A stretch of 64,000 bases of DNA from Escherichia phage vB_EcoM_WFbE185. Below are positions 9,419 to 44,634 of the stretch, in pieces (positions within the stretch are counted from its first letter, which is position 1; every line of letters begins with the position of its first letter). The translations under genes were made by a program, and so were the position numbers. The stretch is from sequence record MK373778.1. The stretch is one strand, 5' to 3'. Below the pieces are notes generated by a model. The model had not been told where the DNA came from and ran no database searches. It saw only the letters and a program-made list of their open reading frames with translations.

Positions 9419-9429
9419 TTCATAGGTCT

Positions 9430-9465
9430 ATTATATCATAATATTTAGAGACCTATCTTAAAGCA
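9430..9465 (-). promoter_or_regulatory. Candidate early/middle promoter for gene 55
   Basis: Minus reads TGCTTTAAGATAGGTCTCTAAATATTATGATATAAT; MotA-box-like TGCTTTA upstream of extended -10; spacing not ideal. Confidence 0.35.
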
Positions 9466-10295: not shown

Positions 10296-10332
10296 ATTAT
10301 TTTCCTCGGTTATTTTATTATCCAACGAGAGA

Positions 10333-10361
10333 ATTATACTCATCTCTCAAGAGTTTGTATA
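10333..10361 (-). promoter_or_regulatory. Sigma70-type early promoter
   Basis: Minus reads TATACA-17-TATAAT; GAGAGA/TCTCTC inverted repeat flanks -10. Confidence 0.5.
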
Positions 10362-10601: not shown

Positions 10602-10664
10602 GATATTTTCCTCATTTTAAGACGATAGGAAGATAATAACATGTCTTCCTATCGTTGTACATTA

Positions 10665-11732: not shown

Positions 11733-11870
11733 TTTATTTTCCTCTATAGTAGATGGTTTAATCTTAACACATCTATTGAGGATGTAAACTGTTTTATGAA
11801 AATATTTTTGATTTGAGAGGGGCACAAGGAGATAGTGAAGTGAAGATTCCAATGGATTATATTAGAAATG

Positions 11871-19150: not shown

Positions 19151-19180
19151 ATTATACTCCAACCATCCTTGGTTGTAAAC
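19151..19180 (-). promoter_or_regulatory. Sigma70-type early promoter
   Basis: Minus reads GTTTACA-spacer-TATAAT; spacer CCAAGGATGG shared with promoters at 20171 and 40617. Confidence 0.55.
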
Positions 19181-20170: not shown

Positions 20171-20200
20171 ATTATACTCCAACCATCCTTGGTTGTACAT
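20171..20200 (-). promoter_or_regulatory. Sigma70-type early promoter
   Basis: Minus reads TGTACA-17-TATAAT; same spacer as 19151. Confidence 0.5.
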
Positions 20201-21785: not shown

Positions 21786-21823
21786 GTTTTACCTCCAGTA
21801 GTTGATAGGTCTATAATAACATA

Positions 21824-21850
21824 ACCATAGACCTTGTAAACAACTAAAAG
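21824..21850 (-). promoter_or_regulatory. Sigma70-type early promoter
   Basis: TTTACA / TATTAT; AGGTCTAT/ATAGACCT inverted repeat flanks -10. Confidence 0.45.
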
Positions 21851-25828: not shown

Positions 25829-25963
25829 TTTACCATACTCGTTTCAATAAGATTCACTATGCCGTTTACCATGTTATAAGTAAACATCGGATAATTGTAT
25901 TGTACTACAACATAAGCGATAAGCAAAAGTTTCATTTTGTTCTCCGTTCGTTTTGGTAGGACT

Positions 25964-25993
25964 ACTATAACATAATCCTACCAAGATGTAAAC
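25964..25993 (-). promoter_or_regulatory. Sigma70-type early promoter inside GGTAGGA/TCCTACC inverted repeat
   Basis: GTTTAC ... TATAGT. Confidence 0.5.
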
Positions 25994-26386: not shown

Positions 26387-26413
26387 AACGTTCTCCTCTA
26401 GTAAGTAAAGACT

Positions 26414-26442
26414 ACTATAACACAACCTGCGGAGAAGTAAAC
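26414..26442 (-). promoter_or_regulatory. Sigma70-type early promoter
   Basis: GTTTAC-17-TATAGT. Confidence 0.5.
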
Positions 26443-27046: not shown

Positions 27047-27623
27047 ACAACCCTGTCAAATCGTTCCAATGCTTCCGGCATAATGACACATATCTATCGG
27101 TATCACCAATTTCAATTTGACTGCCATCTGTAATTGGAAGTCCGTCTTCCGTGACTCTAGCTACCATTGTGGCCTTTTTACCACAATGACAGACACCTTT
27201 AAGTTCAACAAGCTTATCGGCAATAGCCATTAATGCTTGAGAACCTTCAAATAGATTACCTTTAAAATCTGTTCGTAGTCCATATGCCATTACCGGCACA
27301 TTGTACACGTCAACAATACGACTAAGTTGATACACCTTTTCAGTAGTTAAGAACTGAGCTTCGTCAACAAATACACAGTGAATATCCTTTTGTGCTGCAG
27401 CCCATTTATAGAATTCAAAGATATCCATGTCTTTTGTAATTATATTGGCGTCCTTACGAATACCAATACGAGAGACTATTTCACCTTTTGAATCGCGAGT
27501 ATCAATAGCCGGTTTAAGAACTAATACACCCATGCCACGTTCTTTATAGTTATGTGCGGCAGTAAGTAATGAAGCAGACTTACCAGCGTTCATAGCAGCA
27601 TATGTAAAAATTAAACTAGCCAT
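27042..27623 (-). CDS. tk: Thymidine kinase
   Basis: 193 aa; P-loop AMNAGKS; Zn-ribbon CHCGKK...CRKH; resembles T4 Tk. Confidence 0.9.
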   Translation of the reverse strand: MASLIFTYAAMNAGKSASLLTAAHNYKERGMGVLVLKPAIDTRDSKGEIVSRIGIRKDANIITKDMDIFEFYKWAAAQKDIHCVFVDEAQFLTTEKVYQLSRIVDVYNVPVMAYGLRTDFKGNLFEGSQALMAIADKLVELKGVCHCGKKATMVARVTEDGLPITDGSQIEIGDTDRYVSLCRKHWNDLTGLL

Positions 27624-29369: not shown

Positions 29370-29828
29370 CTAGATTTTAATCACTGCTTTAGAAGCTTTT
29401 CCTGGTAGTCGTTTACTGTTAATAATAGCCATTCTACATTGAAGAGTCTTCATTTTAAATGCTGGATTTTCGCGACAAACTGTAAGTCCTAACCAAAGAT
29501 TTCCGTCAGTTATTTCTAAACGGCCCGGGCGATATTCGACACCTTCGTCAAAATCTTCATCAACATCTGGACGTGCCGGCATTGATAAAAATTCTGCAAC
29601 TTCTTTAACATGATTTTTTACTTTATGAAATAATTCAAAAACGTAATTCTCATCTATTTCTCTCTGGATGGCACGATCTAAGAGATGTTGAGAATACTTG
29701 ATATGAAAGCCTGGTAGTCCAAGAGACTTTGCAGCATCTTTTATACTGGCATTTATTTTGCGGAACTCCGTTTCAAAGATTCGACGGAGTTTATTACGGC
29801 GGATAAAAACGTCTGAATTGATAGTCAT
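29370..29828 (-). CDS. regB: Endoribonuclease RegB
   Basis: ORF track 29370..29852; from MTINSDVFIRRNKLRR...LKYSQHLLDRAIQREIDE matches remembered T4 RegB. Confidence 0.85.
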   Translation of the reverse strand: MTINSDVFIRRNKLRRIFETEFRKINASIKDAAKSLGLPGFHIKYSQHLLDRAIQREIDENYVFELFHKVKNHVKEVAEFLSMPARPDVDEDFDEGVEYRPGRLEITDGNLWLGLTVCRENPAFKMKTLQCRMAIINSKRLPGKASKAVIKI

Positions 29829-29856
29829 TTTGATTTCTCCTCTAGTTGACAAGTCT

Positions 29857-29885
29857 ATAGTAACACAACTAGAGGAGAAGTAAAC
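29857..29885 (-). promoter_or_regulatory. Sigma70-type early promoter nested in an 11-bp inverted repeat
   Basis: GTTTAC-17-TACTAT; arms TTCTCCTCTAG at 29835-29845 and 29869-29879. Confidence 0.5.
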
Positions 29886-32544: not shown

Positions 32545-32958
32545 TTAGTAAATTGATTTACCATAGTATTTGTACCAAGTAGGACGTTGAGCAATTTTTT
32601 CGTCTAAGCGTGCTTGACTTATCGCAATGGACGCTTCGGACGGGACGTAATTATTACGAAATTCGGCAGGGATGTCGGAAATATCCTGGACTGTTGTGTC
32701 CTTGATTTTGAAACCACGTTTCAAACATTCGGCGATTAGCTCGATTTGACGTAAACGTAAAAATTCGAGTTTGTCGTAAAAGAATGTTACGTGACCTGTG
32801 CCTAAGATAAATGTTGGAGAGATTTTAAAATCCTTTACACGTTTACCGTTTTGAACATGTTTACGGACTGCACCAAATACGCGTGGTAATTCACGATACT
32901 CAGCCATAAGATGTTGGTCGGTCAGTTCAGAAACAAGTGTTAAATTGATACGAGTCAT
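32545..32958 (-). CDS. denV: Endonuclease V, pyrimidine-dimer DNA glycosylase
   Basis: ORF track 32545..32970; from [12 protein letters not shown]...[15 protein letters not shown] matches remembered T4 DenV. Confidence 0.9.
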
Positions 32959-33016
32959 AATTTCCTCCAAGTAGTTGATGAATGTATAGTATCAAAGTCC
33001 TTGGAGGAAGTAAACA

Positions 33017-35983: not shown

Positions 35984-36011
35984 AATATTCTCCTCATGTT
36001 TTAATAGGACT

Positions 36012-36041
36012 ACTATAACATAGCCCTATAATTGTGTAAAC
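36012..36041 (-). promoter_or_regulatory. Sigma70-type early promoter inside ATAGGACTA/TAGCCCTAT palindrome
   Basis: GTTTAC-18-TATAGT. Confidence 0.5.
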
Positions 36042-37290: not shown

Positions 37291-37306
37291 TTAATTTGAT
37301 AGGACT

Positions 37307-37336
37307 ACTATAACATAGCCCTATCTTGTTGTAAAC
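37307..37336 (-). promoter_or_regulatory. Sigma70-type early promoter inside 10-bp palindrome
   Basis: GTTTAC-18-TATAGT; arms GATAGGACTA / TAGCCCTATC. Confidence 0.5.
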
Positions 37337-40078: not shown

Positions 40079-40118
40079 ATTATTACCTTTCAATTGGTGG
40101 TTTATTATCCATGAGAGC

Positions 40119-40147
40119 ATTATACTCTGCTCTCAAGAGTTTGTAAA
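40119..40147 (-). promoter_or_regulatory. Sigma70-type early promoter
   Basis: TTTACA-17-TATAAT; GAGAGCA/TGCTCTC inverted repeat flanks -10. Confidence 0.55.
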
Positions 40148-40616: not shown

Positions 40617-40645
40617 ATAGTATCACCATCCTTGGTGCTTGTACA
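40617..40645 (-). promoter_or_regulatory. Sigma70-type early promoter
   Basis: TGTACA-17-TACTAT; CCAAGGATGG spacer. Confidence 0.5.
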
Positions 40646-40654
40646 TCGTTATTT

Positions 40655-40960
40655 TTAATTTTTCCAACTTAACAACTTGTAGTGTCCTTCATTCGTACGA
40701 GGTTTATCCCAAGAAATACTAATATATGATTCGCTATCAATAGAAGTCGCCGGGTTTTTCTCTACCGTAAGACCTTCACTTTCCAGCCATTCAATAGTAT
40801 TTGCGCATAAATCTGAAGAACACCTCATCGGAAACCGGCAAGATTTTTCACCTTTAGCTGCAGTGTTATACATCTTTTCTAAAATACGCTTTTGCACGTT
40901 TTTAAAAATAGTTTCAGCAGATTCTTCAGATTTTTTATTCAGTTCAGTGTAAAGACTCAT
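40655..40960 (-). CDS. Hypothetical protein, 101 aa
   Basis: ORF track. Confidence 0.5.
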   Translation of the reverse strand: MSLYTELNKKSEESAETIFKNVQKRILEKMYNTAAKGEKSCRFPMRCSSDLCANTIEWLESEGLTVEKNPATSIDSESYISISWDKPRTNEGHYKLLSWKN

Positions 40961-42288: not shown

Positions 42289-42365
<77 letters not shown>

Positions 42366-42371
42366 AATATA

Positions 42372-42445
42372 TGACCCAGACCAGATTCGAACTGGTAACC
42401 TTTCCCTTATGAGGGGACTGCTGCTAACCATTGAGCTACAGGGCC
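42372..42445 (-). tRNA. tRNA with CAU anticodon (Ile2 or Met)
   Basis: Hand fold: T-arm ACCAG-TTCGAAT-CTGGT, anticodon loop CTCATAA, D-loop AATGGTTA; one mismatch in acceptor stem; CCA not encoded. Confidence 0.6.
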
Positions 42446-43727: not shown

Positions 43728-43881
43728 TAGCGATTAAACCGATTAGAAATGCTACTACCAATGAGATAGAATTTTCAGTTGTTGTCAGTAGTCCGCAAAT
43801 GAATCCTACAAACATCGAAAAACTAAAAGCCATTGAAGCAATTACTACAGCAACATTACGAATCAGTTCAGCGCGTTTCAT
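43696..43881 (-). CDS. Small membrane protein, about 61 aa
   Basis: ORF track 43696..43902 trimmed to ATG 43881 with SD GGAG. Confidence 0.45.
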   Translation of the reverse strand: MKRAELIRNVAVVIASMAFSFSMFVGFICGLLTTTENSISLVVAFLIGLIAIVMDKIAKGE

Positions 43882-43918
43882 TTTATTTCTCCGTTTACTC
43901 ATTTGTTTTGATAGGACT

Positions 43919-43948
43919 ACTATAACATAGTCCTATCATCATGTAAAC
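43919..43948 (-). promoter_or_regulatory. Sigma70-type early promoter inside perfect palindrome
   Basis: GTTTAC-18-TATAGT; arms GATAGGACTA / TAGTCCTATC at 43910-43937. Confidence 0.55.
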
Positions 43949-43950
43949 TA

Positions 43951-44214
43951 TTAAATTCCAGCTTCGCGTTTAACATAATCAACATAAGCTTCGATAGCTT
44001 TCTTGCTGGTAATTTTTACCTGGCCACGTCCATTGCCTTCTTTAGAGTTTTTCTTAACAACTACATTACCATCTTTAACACCCCATACATGGACATAAGT
44101 ACCGATGTTTCGGTCGTAGAACATTGCATGGTCGTTGTTGTAAGAGAATGATTCGTAGTTCTCCGACAGAGTAGAAGATTGAGATTCAGCGATAAATTCT
44201 TTATACGTTTTCAT
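43951..44214 (-). CDS. Internal protein with capsid-targeting sequence, 87 aa
   Basis: N-terminus MKTYKEFIAES. Confidence 0.6.
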   Translation of the reverse strand: MKTYKEFIAESQSSTLSENYESFSYNNDHAMFYDRNIGTYVHVWGVKDGNVVVKKNSKEGNGRGQVKITSKKAIEAYVDYVKREAGI

Positions 44215-44249
44215 TTGTTTTTCCGTTTGGTTGTTGATTTGATAGGACT

Positions 44250-44279
44250 ACTATAACATAGTCCTATCGGCATGTAAAC
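44250..44279 (-). promoter_or_regulatory. Sigma70-type early promoter inside perfect palindrome
   Basis: TTTACA-17-TATAGT preceded by TG; arms GATAGGACTA / TAGTCCTATC at 44241-44268. Confidence 0.55.
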
Positions 44280-44282
44280 TAC

Positions 44283-44570
44283 TTACAGAAGAGTTTTTGC
44301 AATAATTTTAAGCTGAGCTACAGAAATATGCTTAGCTTTAAACAGTGCAGTCTCTTCGGCCGGAGAGATAACAATAGTAGCGCCGTCTTTCTTAGCAGAC
44401 CATCCGTCCCCTAAGTAAACAGTACCTTTTACTTCTTCACCGTCAACCAGACTAATCATTGGTTTACCCTCACGTCCTTTATTTGCTTTAATAACTTCGG
44501 AAGTAAGGGTTGCTTCGGTTAGAGTAGAAACGTTAGCATCAGGTGATATAAATTCTTTATAGGTTTTCAT
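44283..44570 (-). CDS. Internal protein with capsid-targeting sequence, 95 aa
   Basis: N-terminus MKTYKEFISPDANVSTLTEA. Confidence 0.6.
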   Translation of the reverse strand: MKTYKEFISPDANVSTLTEATLTSEVIKANKGREGKPMISLVDGEEVKGTVYLGDGWSAKKDGATIVISPAEETALFKAKHISVAQLKIIAKTLL

Positions 44571-44604
44571 TTTATTTCCTTGAGGTCGTTTATTTGATAG
44601 AATG

Positions 44605-44634
44605 ATAGTAACACACCATCATCCTTATGTAAAC
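44605..44634 (-). promoter_or_regulatory. Sigma70-type early promoter
   Basis: GTTTAC-18-TACTAT. Confidence 0.45.

Follow-up and report, generated by a model that had tools for sequence, protein, structure and literature searches.

Inverted repeats are written into many early promoters of Escherichia phage vB_EcoM_WFbE185. In the 64,000 nucleotides of its genome analysed here (MK373778.1; hereafter the window), the arms of these repeats lie around the -10 element or reach from the promoter spacer to the downstream gene's ribosome-binding site; they change together from promoter to promoter and from phage to phage, and their mismatches on the sense strand lean towards G.T. The repeats are confirmed as real and statistically strong. 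The element is of a published kind, the PeSL, an early promoter with an embedded stem-loop, and is not itself new; the co-variation of the arms, the RNA-level signal and a class of stems that pair with the Shine-Dalgarno (SD) sequence are new here. On balance, we think it probable that these are PeSL-type cassettes with hairpins specific to read-through RNA, in which stems that straddle the -10 and leave the ribosome-binding site free (class I) and stems that take in the SD sequence (class II) would have different roles. An earlier note on this DNA had proposed either RNA processing or termination sites, or binding sites for a dimeric regulator; the RNA reading was the better half of that interpretation, which as a whole is partly supported.

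The 2.5 kb around the finding share 96-98% identity with Shigella phage JK45, O157 typing phage 3 and phage mobillu, all classified in Mosigvirus, subfamily Tevenvirinae, and the genes of the window follow the order of T4, from about gene 55 through nrdC, mobD, tk, vs, regB, denV and the ip genes to the tRNA genes, ipI, 57 and gene 1, and then the baseplate genes. The early genes lie on the minus strand, where some 26-30 promoters fall within 9.9-45.8 kb, many of them ahead of open reading frames (ORFs) of 36-110 amino acids in variable early regions. Since neither the RefSeq nor the GenBank record of T4 holds promoter features, promoters were called by pattern and their start sites were placed by promoter geometry. 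The comparison set comprised the T4 early regions and 88 IMG/VR T4-like loci around regB, gene 55, 57B and modA; window, T4 and IMG/VR relatives together gave a main set of 164 non-redundant T4-type early promoters with an SD sequence and an ATG (142 in an earlier pass). A broad literature search on palindromes at T4 early promoters brought up unrelated palindrome papers only, and a search for mapped T4 transcript ends brought up nothing usable.

Complementary arms around the -10 element

The pattern was first noticed at five class I hairpins, described in the earlier note as perfect 10-bp repeats, or close variants of them, around the -10 and listed here with z-scores against dinucleotide shuffles:

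44241-44268, minus strand: class I hairpin, arms GATAGGACTA / TAGTCCTATC, loop TGTTATAG; -10 at 44255-44250, -35 at 44278-44273; -16.9 kcal/mol, z -3.7; the ORF downstream starts at 44214 and encodes 87 amino acids, internal-protein-like
43909-43938, minus strand: class I hairpin, near-identical second copy, arms TGATAGGACTA / TAGTCCTATCA; -10 at 43924-43919, -35 at 43947-43942; -20.1 kcal/mol, z -5.9; the ORF downstream is the trna.4 homologue, start at 43881
37298-37325, minus strand: class I hairpin, arms GATAGGGCTA / TAGTCCTATC, one G.U; -10 at 37312-37307; z -4.1
36004-36029, minus strand: class I hairpin, arms ATAGGGCTA / TAGTCCTAT, one G.U; -10 at 36017-36012; z -2.8
25953-25984, minus strand: class I hairpin at the promoter of the mobD.2 homologue, arms TTGGTAGGATTA / TAGTCCTACCAA, one U.G; z -3.7

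All five are real, while only the first two contain perfect 10-bp repeats (44241-44268 and 43910-43937, both reading GATAGGACTA-TGTTATAG-TAGTCCTATC on the minus strand from 44268 and 43937), and the other three are imperfect. In the perfect pair the arms close an 8-nt loop containing TGnTATAG, and each copy has GTTTACA 17 nt upstream of TATAGT, a TG extended -10 and A-rich upstream sequence. The earlier reading of these sites as early promoters whose -10 is enclosed by the repeat holds, and the promoters are of a strong sigma-70 type. The copy at 25984-25953 is 12 bp long, with one position compensated relative to the other copies. Allowing at most one mismatch, GATAGGACTA occurs 13 times where 2.7 occurrences are expected, and across ten hairpin regions the predicted folding energies run from -14 to -22 kcal/mol, with z from -2.5 to -5.9. 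About ten other minus-strand early promoters have arms that differ from those of the five copies.

Pairing between the two sides of a promoter is far stronger than chance would give. In the window, spacer and downstream segment pair with a mean duplex energy of -9.1 kcal/mol when both come from one promoter and of -6.2 when they come from different ones, with none of 20,000 permutations as extreme. The window holds 45 perfect inverted repeats of 8 bp or longer, where shuffles give 29 +/- 4.9 (by a custom count, a general repeat listing for the whole window being dominated by short extended palindromes), and nine of the 45 fall on the roughly 2% of the sequence taken up by promoter cores. The main test, which is free of any fixed register, pairs the upstream half of a promoter with its own downstream half or with that of another promoter: an ungapped helix score of at least 8 was reached by 33.5% of the 164 promoters and by 3.3% of cross-promoter pairs, and the earlier pass over 142 promoters had given a self-versus-cross z-score of 20. 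Any symmetry of the consensus is present in the cross-promoter control as well, so the excess of self-pairing goes beyond the consensus.

The arms are also remade together. Orthologous promoters in T4 and other relatives (regB, mobD.2, trna.4, ipI, denV and nrdC.8) have arms unrelated to those of the window that are still complementary to each other, and at 55.2-type promoters, too, the arms of relatives differ and yet pair:

regB: TTCTCCTCTAGTTG / CAACTAGAGGAGAA in this phage; TTTTCCTCTTGACTG / CAGTTAAGAGGAGAA in the T4 type; TTTCTCCTCTTTATG / CATAAAGAGGAGAAA and TCTCCTGTAAG / CTTACAGGAGA in other phages
mobD.2: TTGGTAGGATTA / TAGTCCTACCAA in this phage; AGTTGACAAGATTA / TAATCTTGTCAACT in T4
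ipI: AGGATGAT / ATCATTCT in this phage; TGATGAGGTA / TACCTCATCA in T4
trna.4: GATAGGACTA, GGTAGGACTA, ATAGGGTA, GTGTAGGGATA and AGGGTTAT, each with its own complement
denV: TTCCTCCAAG / CTTGGAGGAA in this phage; TCTCCTGTAG / CTACAGGAGA in T4
55.2 type: GAGAGA / TCTCTC in the window; GGGAGC / GCTCTC, GGGACC / GGTCCC and GAGGAC / GTCCTC in relatives

Complementary segments in the regB orthologues include CTAGTTG/CAACTAG, CTTGACTG/CAGTTAAG, CTTTATG/CATAAAG and TGTAAG/CTTACA. In a gap-free alignment of the 55.2-type promoters, 98% of cells are paired and four of the seven pairs have changed on both sides, against 36-58% of cells paired in slid controls. Even the class can change, orthologous promoters of trna.4 and nrdC.8 switching between class I and class II; at nrdC.8 the T4 spacer pairs with the SD sequence, while the window orthologue is class I. 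Co-variation had been named in the earlier note as a check on its idea, and its presence both between promoters and between orthologues in related phages favours structure.

The mismatches speak to the nucleic acid that pairs. Helices were scored blind to the type of mismatch, and the mismatches were counted afterwards on the sense strand: 23 are G.T or T.G and 5 are A.C or C.A (binomial p = 4.6e-4), with 12 others, against 64, 64 and 250 in the chance helices of cross-pairs. At the level of sequence, this wobble bias of the sense strand indicates pairing in the transcribed RNA.

Class I makes up about two thirds of the helices, all five cited copies among them. Its 5' arm spans roughly -28 to -16 and its 3' arm roughly -7 to +5, ending between -2 and +12, around a loop with a median of 8 nt, formed by the extended -10; between the 3' arm and the ATG lie 11-45 nt, which leaves the ribosome-binding site free. 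The arms occupy exactly the positions left free by promoter function, and the spacing between them ranges across promoters from 6 to more than 25 nt. In every helix the 5' arm ends at or upstream of -11, and a sigma-70 promoter by standard geometry starts transcription about 7 nt past its -10. With start sites inferred in this way, a promoter's own RNA cannot form the stem, and the earlier claim that only read-through RNA folds stands on the same terms.

Stems over the Shine-Dalgarno sequence and other hairpins

About one third of the helices (22-26 of 64-72) pair with the SD sequence. The first three of the following had been missed in the earlier note, and the fourth is a weak pairing:

29835-29879, minus strand: class II hairpin at the regB promoter, 14 bp; 5' arm TTCTCCTCTAGTTG directly after the -35; 3' arm CAACTAGAGGAGAA takes in the SD sequence, stopping 6 nt short of the ATG at 29828; -21.6 kcal/mol, z -4.0
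32962-33009, minus strand: class II hairpin at the denV promoter, 10 bp, arms TTCCTCCAAG / CTTGGAGGAA; the 3' arm is the SD sequence, 3 nt before the ATG at 32958; z -3.5
11740-11782, minus strand: class II hairpin at the promoter of the 55.6 homologue, arms TCCTCAATAG / CTATAGAGGA with one mismatch, and an inner stem TAGATG / CATCTA
26391-26436, minus strand: weak class II pairing, TTCTCC / GGAGAA, at a promoter just downstream of the terminator-like GGGGCTTTTTT

In this class the 5' arm starts right after the -35 and holds an anti-SD run (TCTCC or TTCCTC), the 3' arm includes the SD sequence and ends 0-8 nt before the ATG, the loops are 15-34 nt long and the inner pairs co-vary. RNAalifold, applied to the regB promoters, recovered the anti-SD:SD helix and nothing else, since the variable inner pairs are put out of register by indels. 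In the promoters' own transcripts the SD window is predicted to be unpaired with a probability of 0.70, and in read-through RNA with one of 0.415; at 22% of promoters the read-through value drops below 0.2, against 6-7% in chimeric or shuffled controls (Fisher p ~2e-6) and 0.7% in own transcripts. Single chimeras and shuffled upstream halves served as controls here, a mean of chimeras being too smoothed. In these predictions the occlusion signal sits in the tail of the distribution and is carried by a distinct subset, class II.

The remaining hairpins of the window are of class I, lie wholly within the spacer (class III) or belong to a middle-type promoter:

44599-44625, minus strand: class I hairpin at the ipI promoter, arms AGGATGAT / ATCATTCT, one G.U; -10 at 44610-44605; missed in the earlier note; in mobillu the hairpin of this promoter is a perfect ATCATCCT
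21807-21834, minus strand: class I hairpin at the promoter of the nrdC.8 homologue, arms AGGTCTAT / ATAGACCT
40112-40135, minus strand: class I hairpin, arms TGAGAGCA / TGCTCTCA around TATAAT; z -3.7
10327-10348, minus strand: class I hairpin at the promoter of the 55.2 homologue, arms GAGAGA / TCTCTC
10622-10655, minus strand: class I hairpin, arms ACGATAGGAAGA / TCTTCCTATCGT (12 bp, perfect), the -10 in a loop of 10 nt; z -4.5; missed in the earlier note
9422-9456, minus strand: middle-type promoter of gene 55 with a MotA box, its -10 flanked by arms ATAGGTCT / AGACCTAT
19151-19179, minus strand: class III hairpin, wholly within the spacer, CAACCA-AGGA-TGGTTG; -10 at 19156

The different arms reported earlier at 21834-21807, 40135-40112 and 10348-10327 are borne out. 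Near 9421 the repeat reported earlier is real, though with arms ATAGGTCT / AGACCTAT in place of those given and at a promoter of the MotA-box type. Co-varying arms recur at such promoters, as ATAGGTCT/AGACCTAT, ATAGGCAT/ATGCCTAT, ATAGGTAT/ATACCTAT and TTAGCCAT/ATGGCTA (taken from window 9422-9456 and from loci L031, L035, L037, L041-L043, L048 and L049, upstream of 55.2 homologues), so the design is not confined to early promoters. The spacer hairpin CAACCA-AGGA-TGGTTG is found again at 20171-20199 (minus strand, promoter with its -10 at 20176), the two identical spacers standing ahead of paralogous ORFs of about 316-319 amino acids, and a related CACCA-AGGA-TGGTG lies at 40617-40645 (minus strand, promoter with its -10 at 40622).

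Several neighbouring features deserve record. Upstream of 55.2, an intrinsic terminator (GGGCTTCGGCCC and then a T-run) occupies about 40790-40830 of the T4 genome, at the place of the promoter hairpin of 10327-10361 (10338) in the window and of promoter hairpins in other phages; downstream, TTGGATAATAAAAT is conserved alike in T4, with its terminator, and in the phages with a promoter hairpin. Between 30 and 46 kb the sole convincing intrinsic terminator on the early strand is GGAGGACTCCGGTCCTCC followed by TTTT at 39476-39459, which forms a hairpin on both strands. An Rfam search of the window matched two tRNAs and nothing else; the tRNA cluster at 42289-42445 (minus strand) holds two genes (tRNA-Arg tct and tRNA-Met cat) against the eight tRNAs and two small RNAs of T4.

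Two observations concern T4 itself. At its early promoter Pe133295, 14 bp (133300-133313 of the genome; L092 14301-14314) are recorded as the 'inverted complement of previously reported sequence', a stretch that coincides exactly with the loop, including the -10, that the 7-bp arms GGTAGAG / CTCTACC enclose; the record may reflect either an old sequencing artefact at a hairpin or a hint that such loops flip. Six other T4 early promoters (-10 at 27056, 55360, 70672, 146851, 163649 and 167062) share a near-identical block from the -10 into the leader, GGTACTATACAACTATCAACTACTGATACGGATTTGGAGAATAAAATG. In these six (L085, L001 and L092) no stem straddles the -10, and two carry a spacer palindrome, CATAAAGCTTTATG; from its sequence, the block looks like a separate family of duplicated cassettes.

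Likeness to PeSLs and other known elements

PeSLs were defined in phages RB49 and phi1 as early promoters with an embedded stem-loop, in which G-T pairs were noted, and they recombine, excising cassettes; elements of the T-even internal-protein locus were described in the same work as analogues on T4 early promoters, with weaker, AT-rich stem-loops (Arbiol 2010, PMC2839356). The concept was later extended to T4/PST and KVP40/nt-1, including middle-promoter versions (Comeau 2014, PMC4122927). The elements of the window share with them a strong sigma-70-type early promoter (spacer 16-18 nt) with an AT-rich upstream region, a stem-loop between the boxes or over the -10, an SD sequence and start codon behind it, G-T pairs in the stems, and repetition in many copies between the small ORFs of variable early regions. 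The edges correspond as well, TAA/TAG standing directly ahead of the -35 at 43950 and GGAG and an ATG following 33-45 nt past the -10. They differ in that the stems of RB49 and phi1 pair a G-run with a C-run, whereas those of the window are AT-rich and highly variable in sequence, and in that the legend on PST and T4 in PMC4122927 puts the stems 'just upstream' of the promoter, whereas the window arms straddle the -10 or pair the spacer with the SD sequence. The PeSL papers, moreover, read the stems as terminators and recombination sites, the word translation being absent from the 2010 text, and contain no test of co-variation or strand asymmetry.

As with PeSLs, cassettes of this kind bound indels, and at the window locus the crossover lies inside a duplicated element:

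43902-43953 and 44234-44285, minus strand: direct repeat of ~52 bp, a block of promoter and hairpin, flanking the cassette 43954-44233

This cassette and one promoter copy are absent from the 97%-identical phage mobillu, in which two pieces of the blastn alignment overlap by 52 bp on the duplicated promoter and the junction falls inside the repeat block (locus L093 1404-1455). What mobillu lacks is the 87-amino-acid ORF of the ipI locus that carries the internal-protein leader MKTYKEFIAE, and an indel bounded in this way by promoter copies is the PeSL recombination signature. Conserved early-promoter blocks of ~70 bp that flank T-even internal-protein genes are credited to Repoila 1994 in PMC2839356 and PMC4122927, and the two blocks here likewise flank an ORF with the MKTYKEFIAE leader that is present or absent between close relatives; as those two papers cite it, the subject of that work was recombinational shuffling, and the -10 inverted repeat was apparently not treated as a structural element. 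At the same locus (43879-43953, minus strand) an outer stem may enclose the class I hairpin, formed by the -35 GTTTAC and the complementary GTAAAC of the leader (GAGTAAACGGAG), and the leader motif AAATGAGTAAAyGGAGAA recurs in several phages.

A second comparison is with the translational switches of T4 e, soc, 49 and I-TevI, whose long read-through transcripts bury the SD sequence or the AUG in a helix, while a promoter sits in the DNA of the 5' arm or loop and its own transcripts, without the 5' arm, are translated; hairpins that bury the ribosome-binding site are listed in the T4 review for these and some other endonuclease genes only, all with late or middle promoters (PMC3014915). Class II stems share exactly this geometry, own transcripts that lack the 5' arm included, if start sites lie where we place them. 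The logic would be reversed, since the known cases delay expression, whereas in the window the internal promoter is early and would limit expression to the early burst. Class I stems differ in not touching the ribosome-binding site at all; in the five cited copies 17-27 nt separate the end of the 3' arm from the ATG, and the SD sequence is free. Intrinsic terminators and 3' stabilisers, finally, resemble the elements in being stable intercistronic hairpins just past the upstream stop codon, and differ from the window stems in that the latter have no U-tract, a moderate GC content and a 5' arm shared with a functional promoter.

Read-through RNA and the alternatives

In the reading that we favour, each element is a very strong sigma-70 early promoter in which the positions left free, those of the -35/-10 spacer and the bases immediately following the -10, have been moulded into hairpin arms. 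Transcription would start inside or just past the 3' arm, leaving the promoter's own mRNA without the 5' arm and unstructured, while RNA from an upstream promoter would hold both arms and fold; the hairpin would in this way mark read-through RNA at gene boundaries. In class II (regB, denV and the 55.6 homologue) the fold would hide the ribosome-binding site, and translation would come essentially only from RNA of the gene's own early promoter. Class I would act as intercistronic punctuation, whether by attenuating read-through or by blocking 3'-to-5' exonucleases that enter at leader cuts made by RegB or RNase E; cuts by RegB do create entry sites for 3' exonucleases (PMC3014915). Being repeated, the blocks may also serve as recombination points for gene cassettes. 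The switching of orthologues between class I and class II, together with the T4 terminator at the position of the 10338 hairpin, suggests that it is the read-through-specific hairpin as such that is kept. As substrates for RNase III, stems of 7-14 bp look short.

Several observations weigh against this reading. The feature is frequent, not universal: 56% of promoters have no helix scoring at least 7, and the hairpin must be dispensable for many genes. The early-promoter consensus is itself weakly dyad-symmetric, with TA.G at -23 to -20 and C.TA at -3 to +1, and co-variation in a fixed, -10-aligned register (-16 with -7 and so on) is weak, at best 0.42 observed against 0.31 expected, because registers vary between promoters and the consensus is partly symmetric. 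Chimeric controls also lower predicted SD accessibility (to 0.45), so that the overall shift against chimeras is marginal (p = 0.067), pyrimidine-rich spacers being common. The G.T bias would be expected, too, of a hairpin in single-stranded non-template DNA. As for attenuation by class I, the stems are followed by no U-tract (0/46) and drew no call in a terminator scan, which makes efficient intrinsic termination doubtful, and the single published terminator assay used a G-rich RB49 stem.

In the original PeSL proposal every hairpin, those of class I among them, serves first of all to terminate or attenuate transcription and so to keep each early gene transcriptionally separate. We consider this unlikely. 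The stem-loop of RB49 PeSL211/210 did cut downstream lacZ expression as much as rrnB T1 (PMC2839356), and a canonical T4 terminator stands at the position of one window hairpin; yet a lacZ assay cannot separate termination from RNA decay or effects on translation, and T4 early and middle genes are partly expressed by extension of upstream transcripts. Nor do the stems look the part. At least five T in the next 8 nt follow none of the 46 class I and none of the 26 class II stems, class I tails are 53% A and 16% T, the stems are AT-rich at about 40% GC, and the scan that called the canonical terminator at 39476-39459 called no promoter hairpin terminator-like. Class I and class II stems are accordingly rejected as intrinsic (rho-independent) terminators, and classical termination, as one reading of the earlier note, is not supported.

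It is improbable that the structure operates in DNA, as a cruciform or a hairpin of the non-template strand that pre-melts or modulates the -10 or serves recombination or replication. With the -10 in the loop, that element would be single-stranded, and G.T is the least destabilising mismatch in DNA hairpins as well; the inverted 14-bp promoter loop in the T4 record also fits, as does the finding that PeSL stem-loops block sequencing polymerases on a single-stranded template (PMC2839356). A cruciform requires both strands to pair, and its template strand would carry a disfavoured A.C at every G.T, so that the wobble bias argues against it; the 3' arm of class II, moreover, is a ribosome-binding site, which is sensible in RNA only. 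Class II loops, at 15-34 nt, make poor cruciform formers, as do class I loops of some 8 nt between AT-rich arms of 7-14 bp.

We give just as little credence to the hairpins being functionless by-products, whether of a partly symmetric extended consensus or of quasi-palindrome-templated mutation and cassette duplication in unconstrained intergenic DNA. T4 is a classic system for quasi-palindrome-templated mutations, the consensus does have TA.G in its spacer and C.TA near +1, several copies are recent duplicates, and at 40404-40395 the downstream arm sequence stands without a partner. Against such an origin, cross-promoter pairing, in which the effect of the consensus is included, is tenfold rarer than self-pairing, and arms differ wholly between orthologues; a wobble asymmetry of 23:5, where chance helices give 64:64, is not expected from consensus or templated mutation, and the SD-pairing arms reach well past the anti-SD core, with inner pairs that co-vary. 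That the repeats are palindromic operators, on which a dimeric phage or host protein covering the -10 would shut off early promoters, is the least credible proposal of all: the symmetry is centred on the -10, the arms at five promoters are near-identical and the mechanism of T4 early-promoter shut-off is still unknown (PMC2988021, PMC3014915), yet the shared GATAGGACTA copies are accounted for by duplicated cassettes, arms are otherwise unrelated between promoters and orthologues while remaining complementary, no half-site is conserved, the arms lie anywhere from 6 to more than 25 nt apart, roughly half of the early promoters lack a repeat, and one-strand wobble mismatches (23:5) would make no difference to a protein that reads duplex DNA.

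The finding mainly re-identifies a published, little-used concept, the PeSL, in a Mosigvirus genome, and adds to it quantitative evidence of selection at the level of RNA. If the read-through reading is right, each early gene has a built-in device for telling its own transcripts from read-through RNA, which would bear on the abrupt switch-off of early protein synthesis and on the uncoupled decay of neighbouring cistrons after RegB cleavage. Part of the "extra consensus" of T4 early promoters, so far unexplained, would be accounted for as well, and so would the use of the blocks as recombination joints for cassettes; compact and portable promoter-plus-insulator parts would also be on offer. A bolder extension, which we offer tentatively and regard as rather doubtful, is that hairpins specific to read-through RNA are encoded systematically at the early promoters of T4-type phages and sort transcripts by origin, class II limiting the translation of genes such as regB and denV to their own early RNA and class I shielding upstream cistrons from 3' exonucleases that come in at cuts by RegB or RNase E. 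Were this true, synthesis of the proteins concerned would stop at early-promoter shut-off although upstream transcription continues, and the phages would possess a genome-wide post-transcriptional layer of early-gene timing that is described neither by the PeSL papers nor by reviews of T4 translational control.

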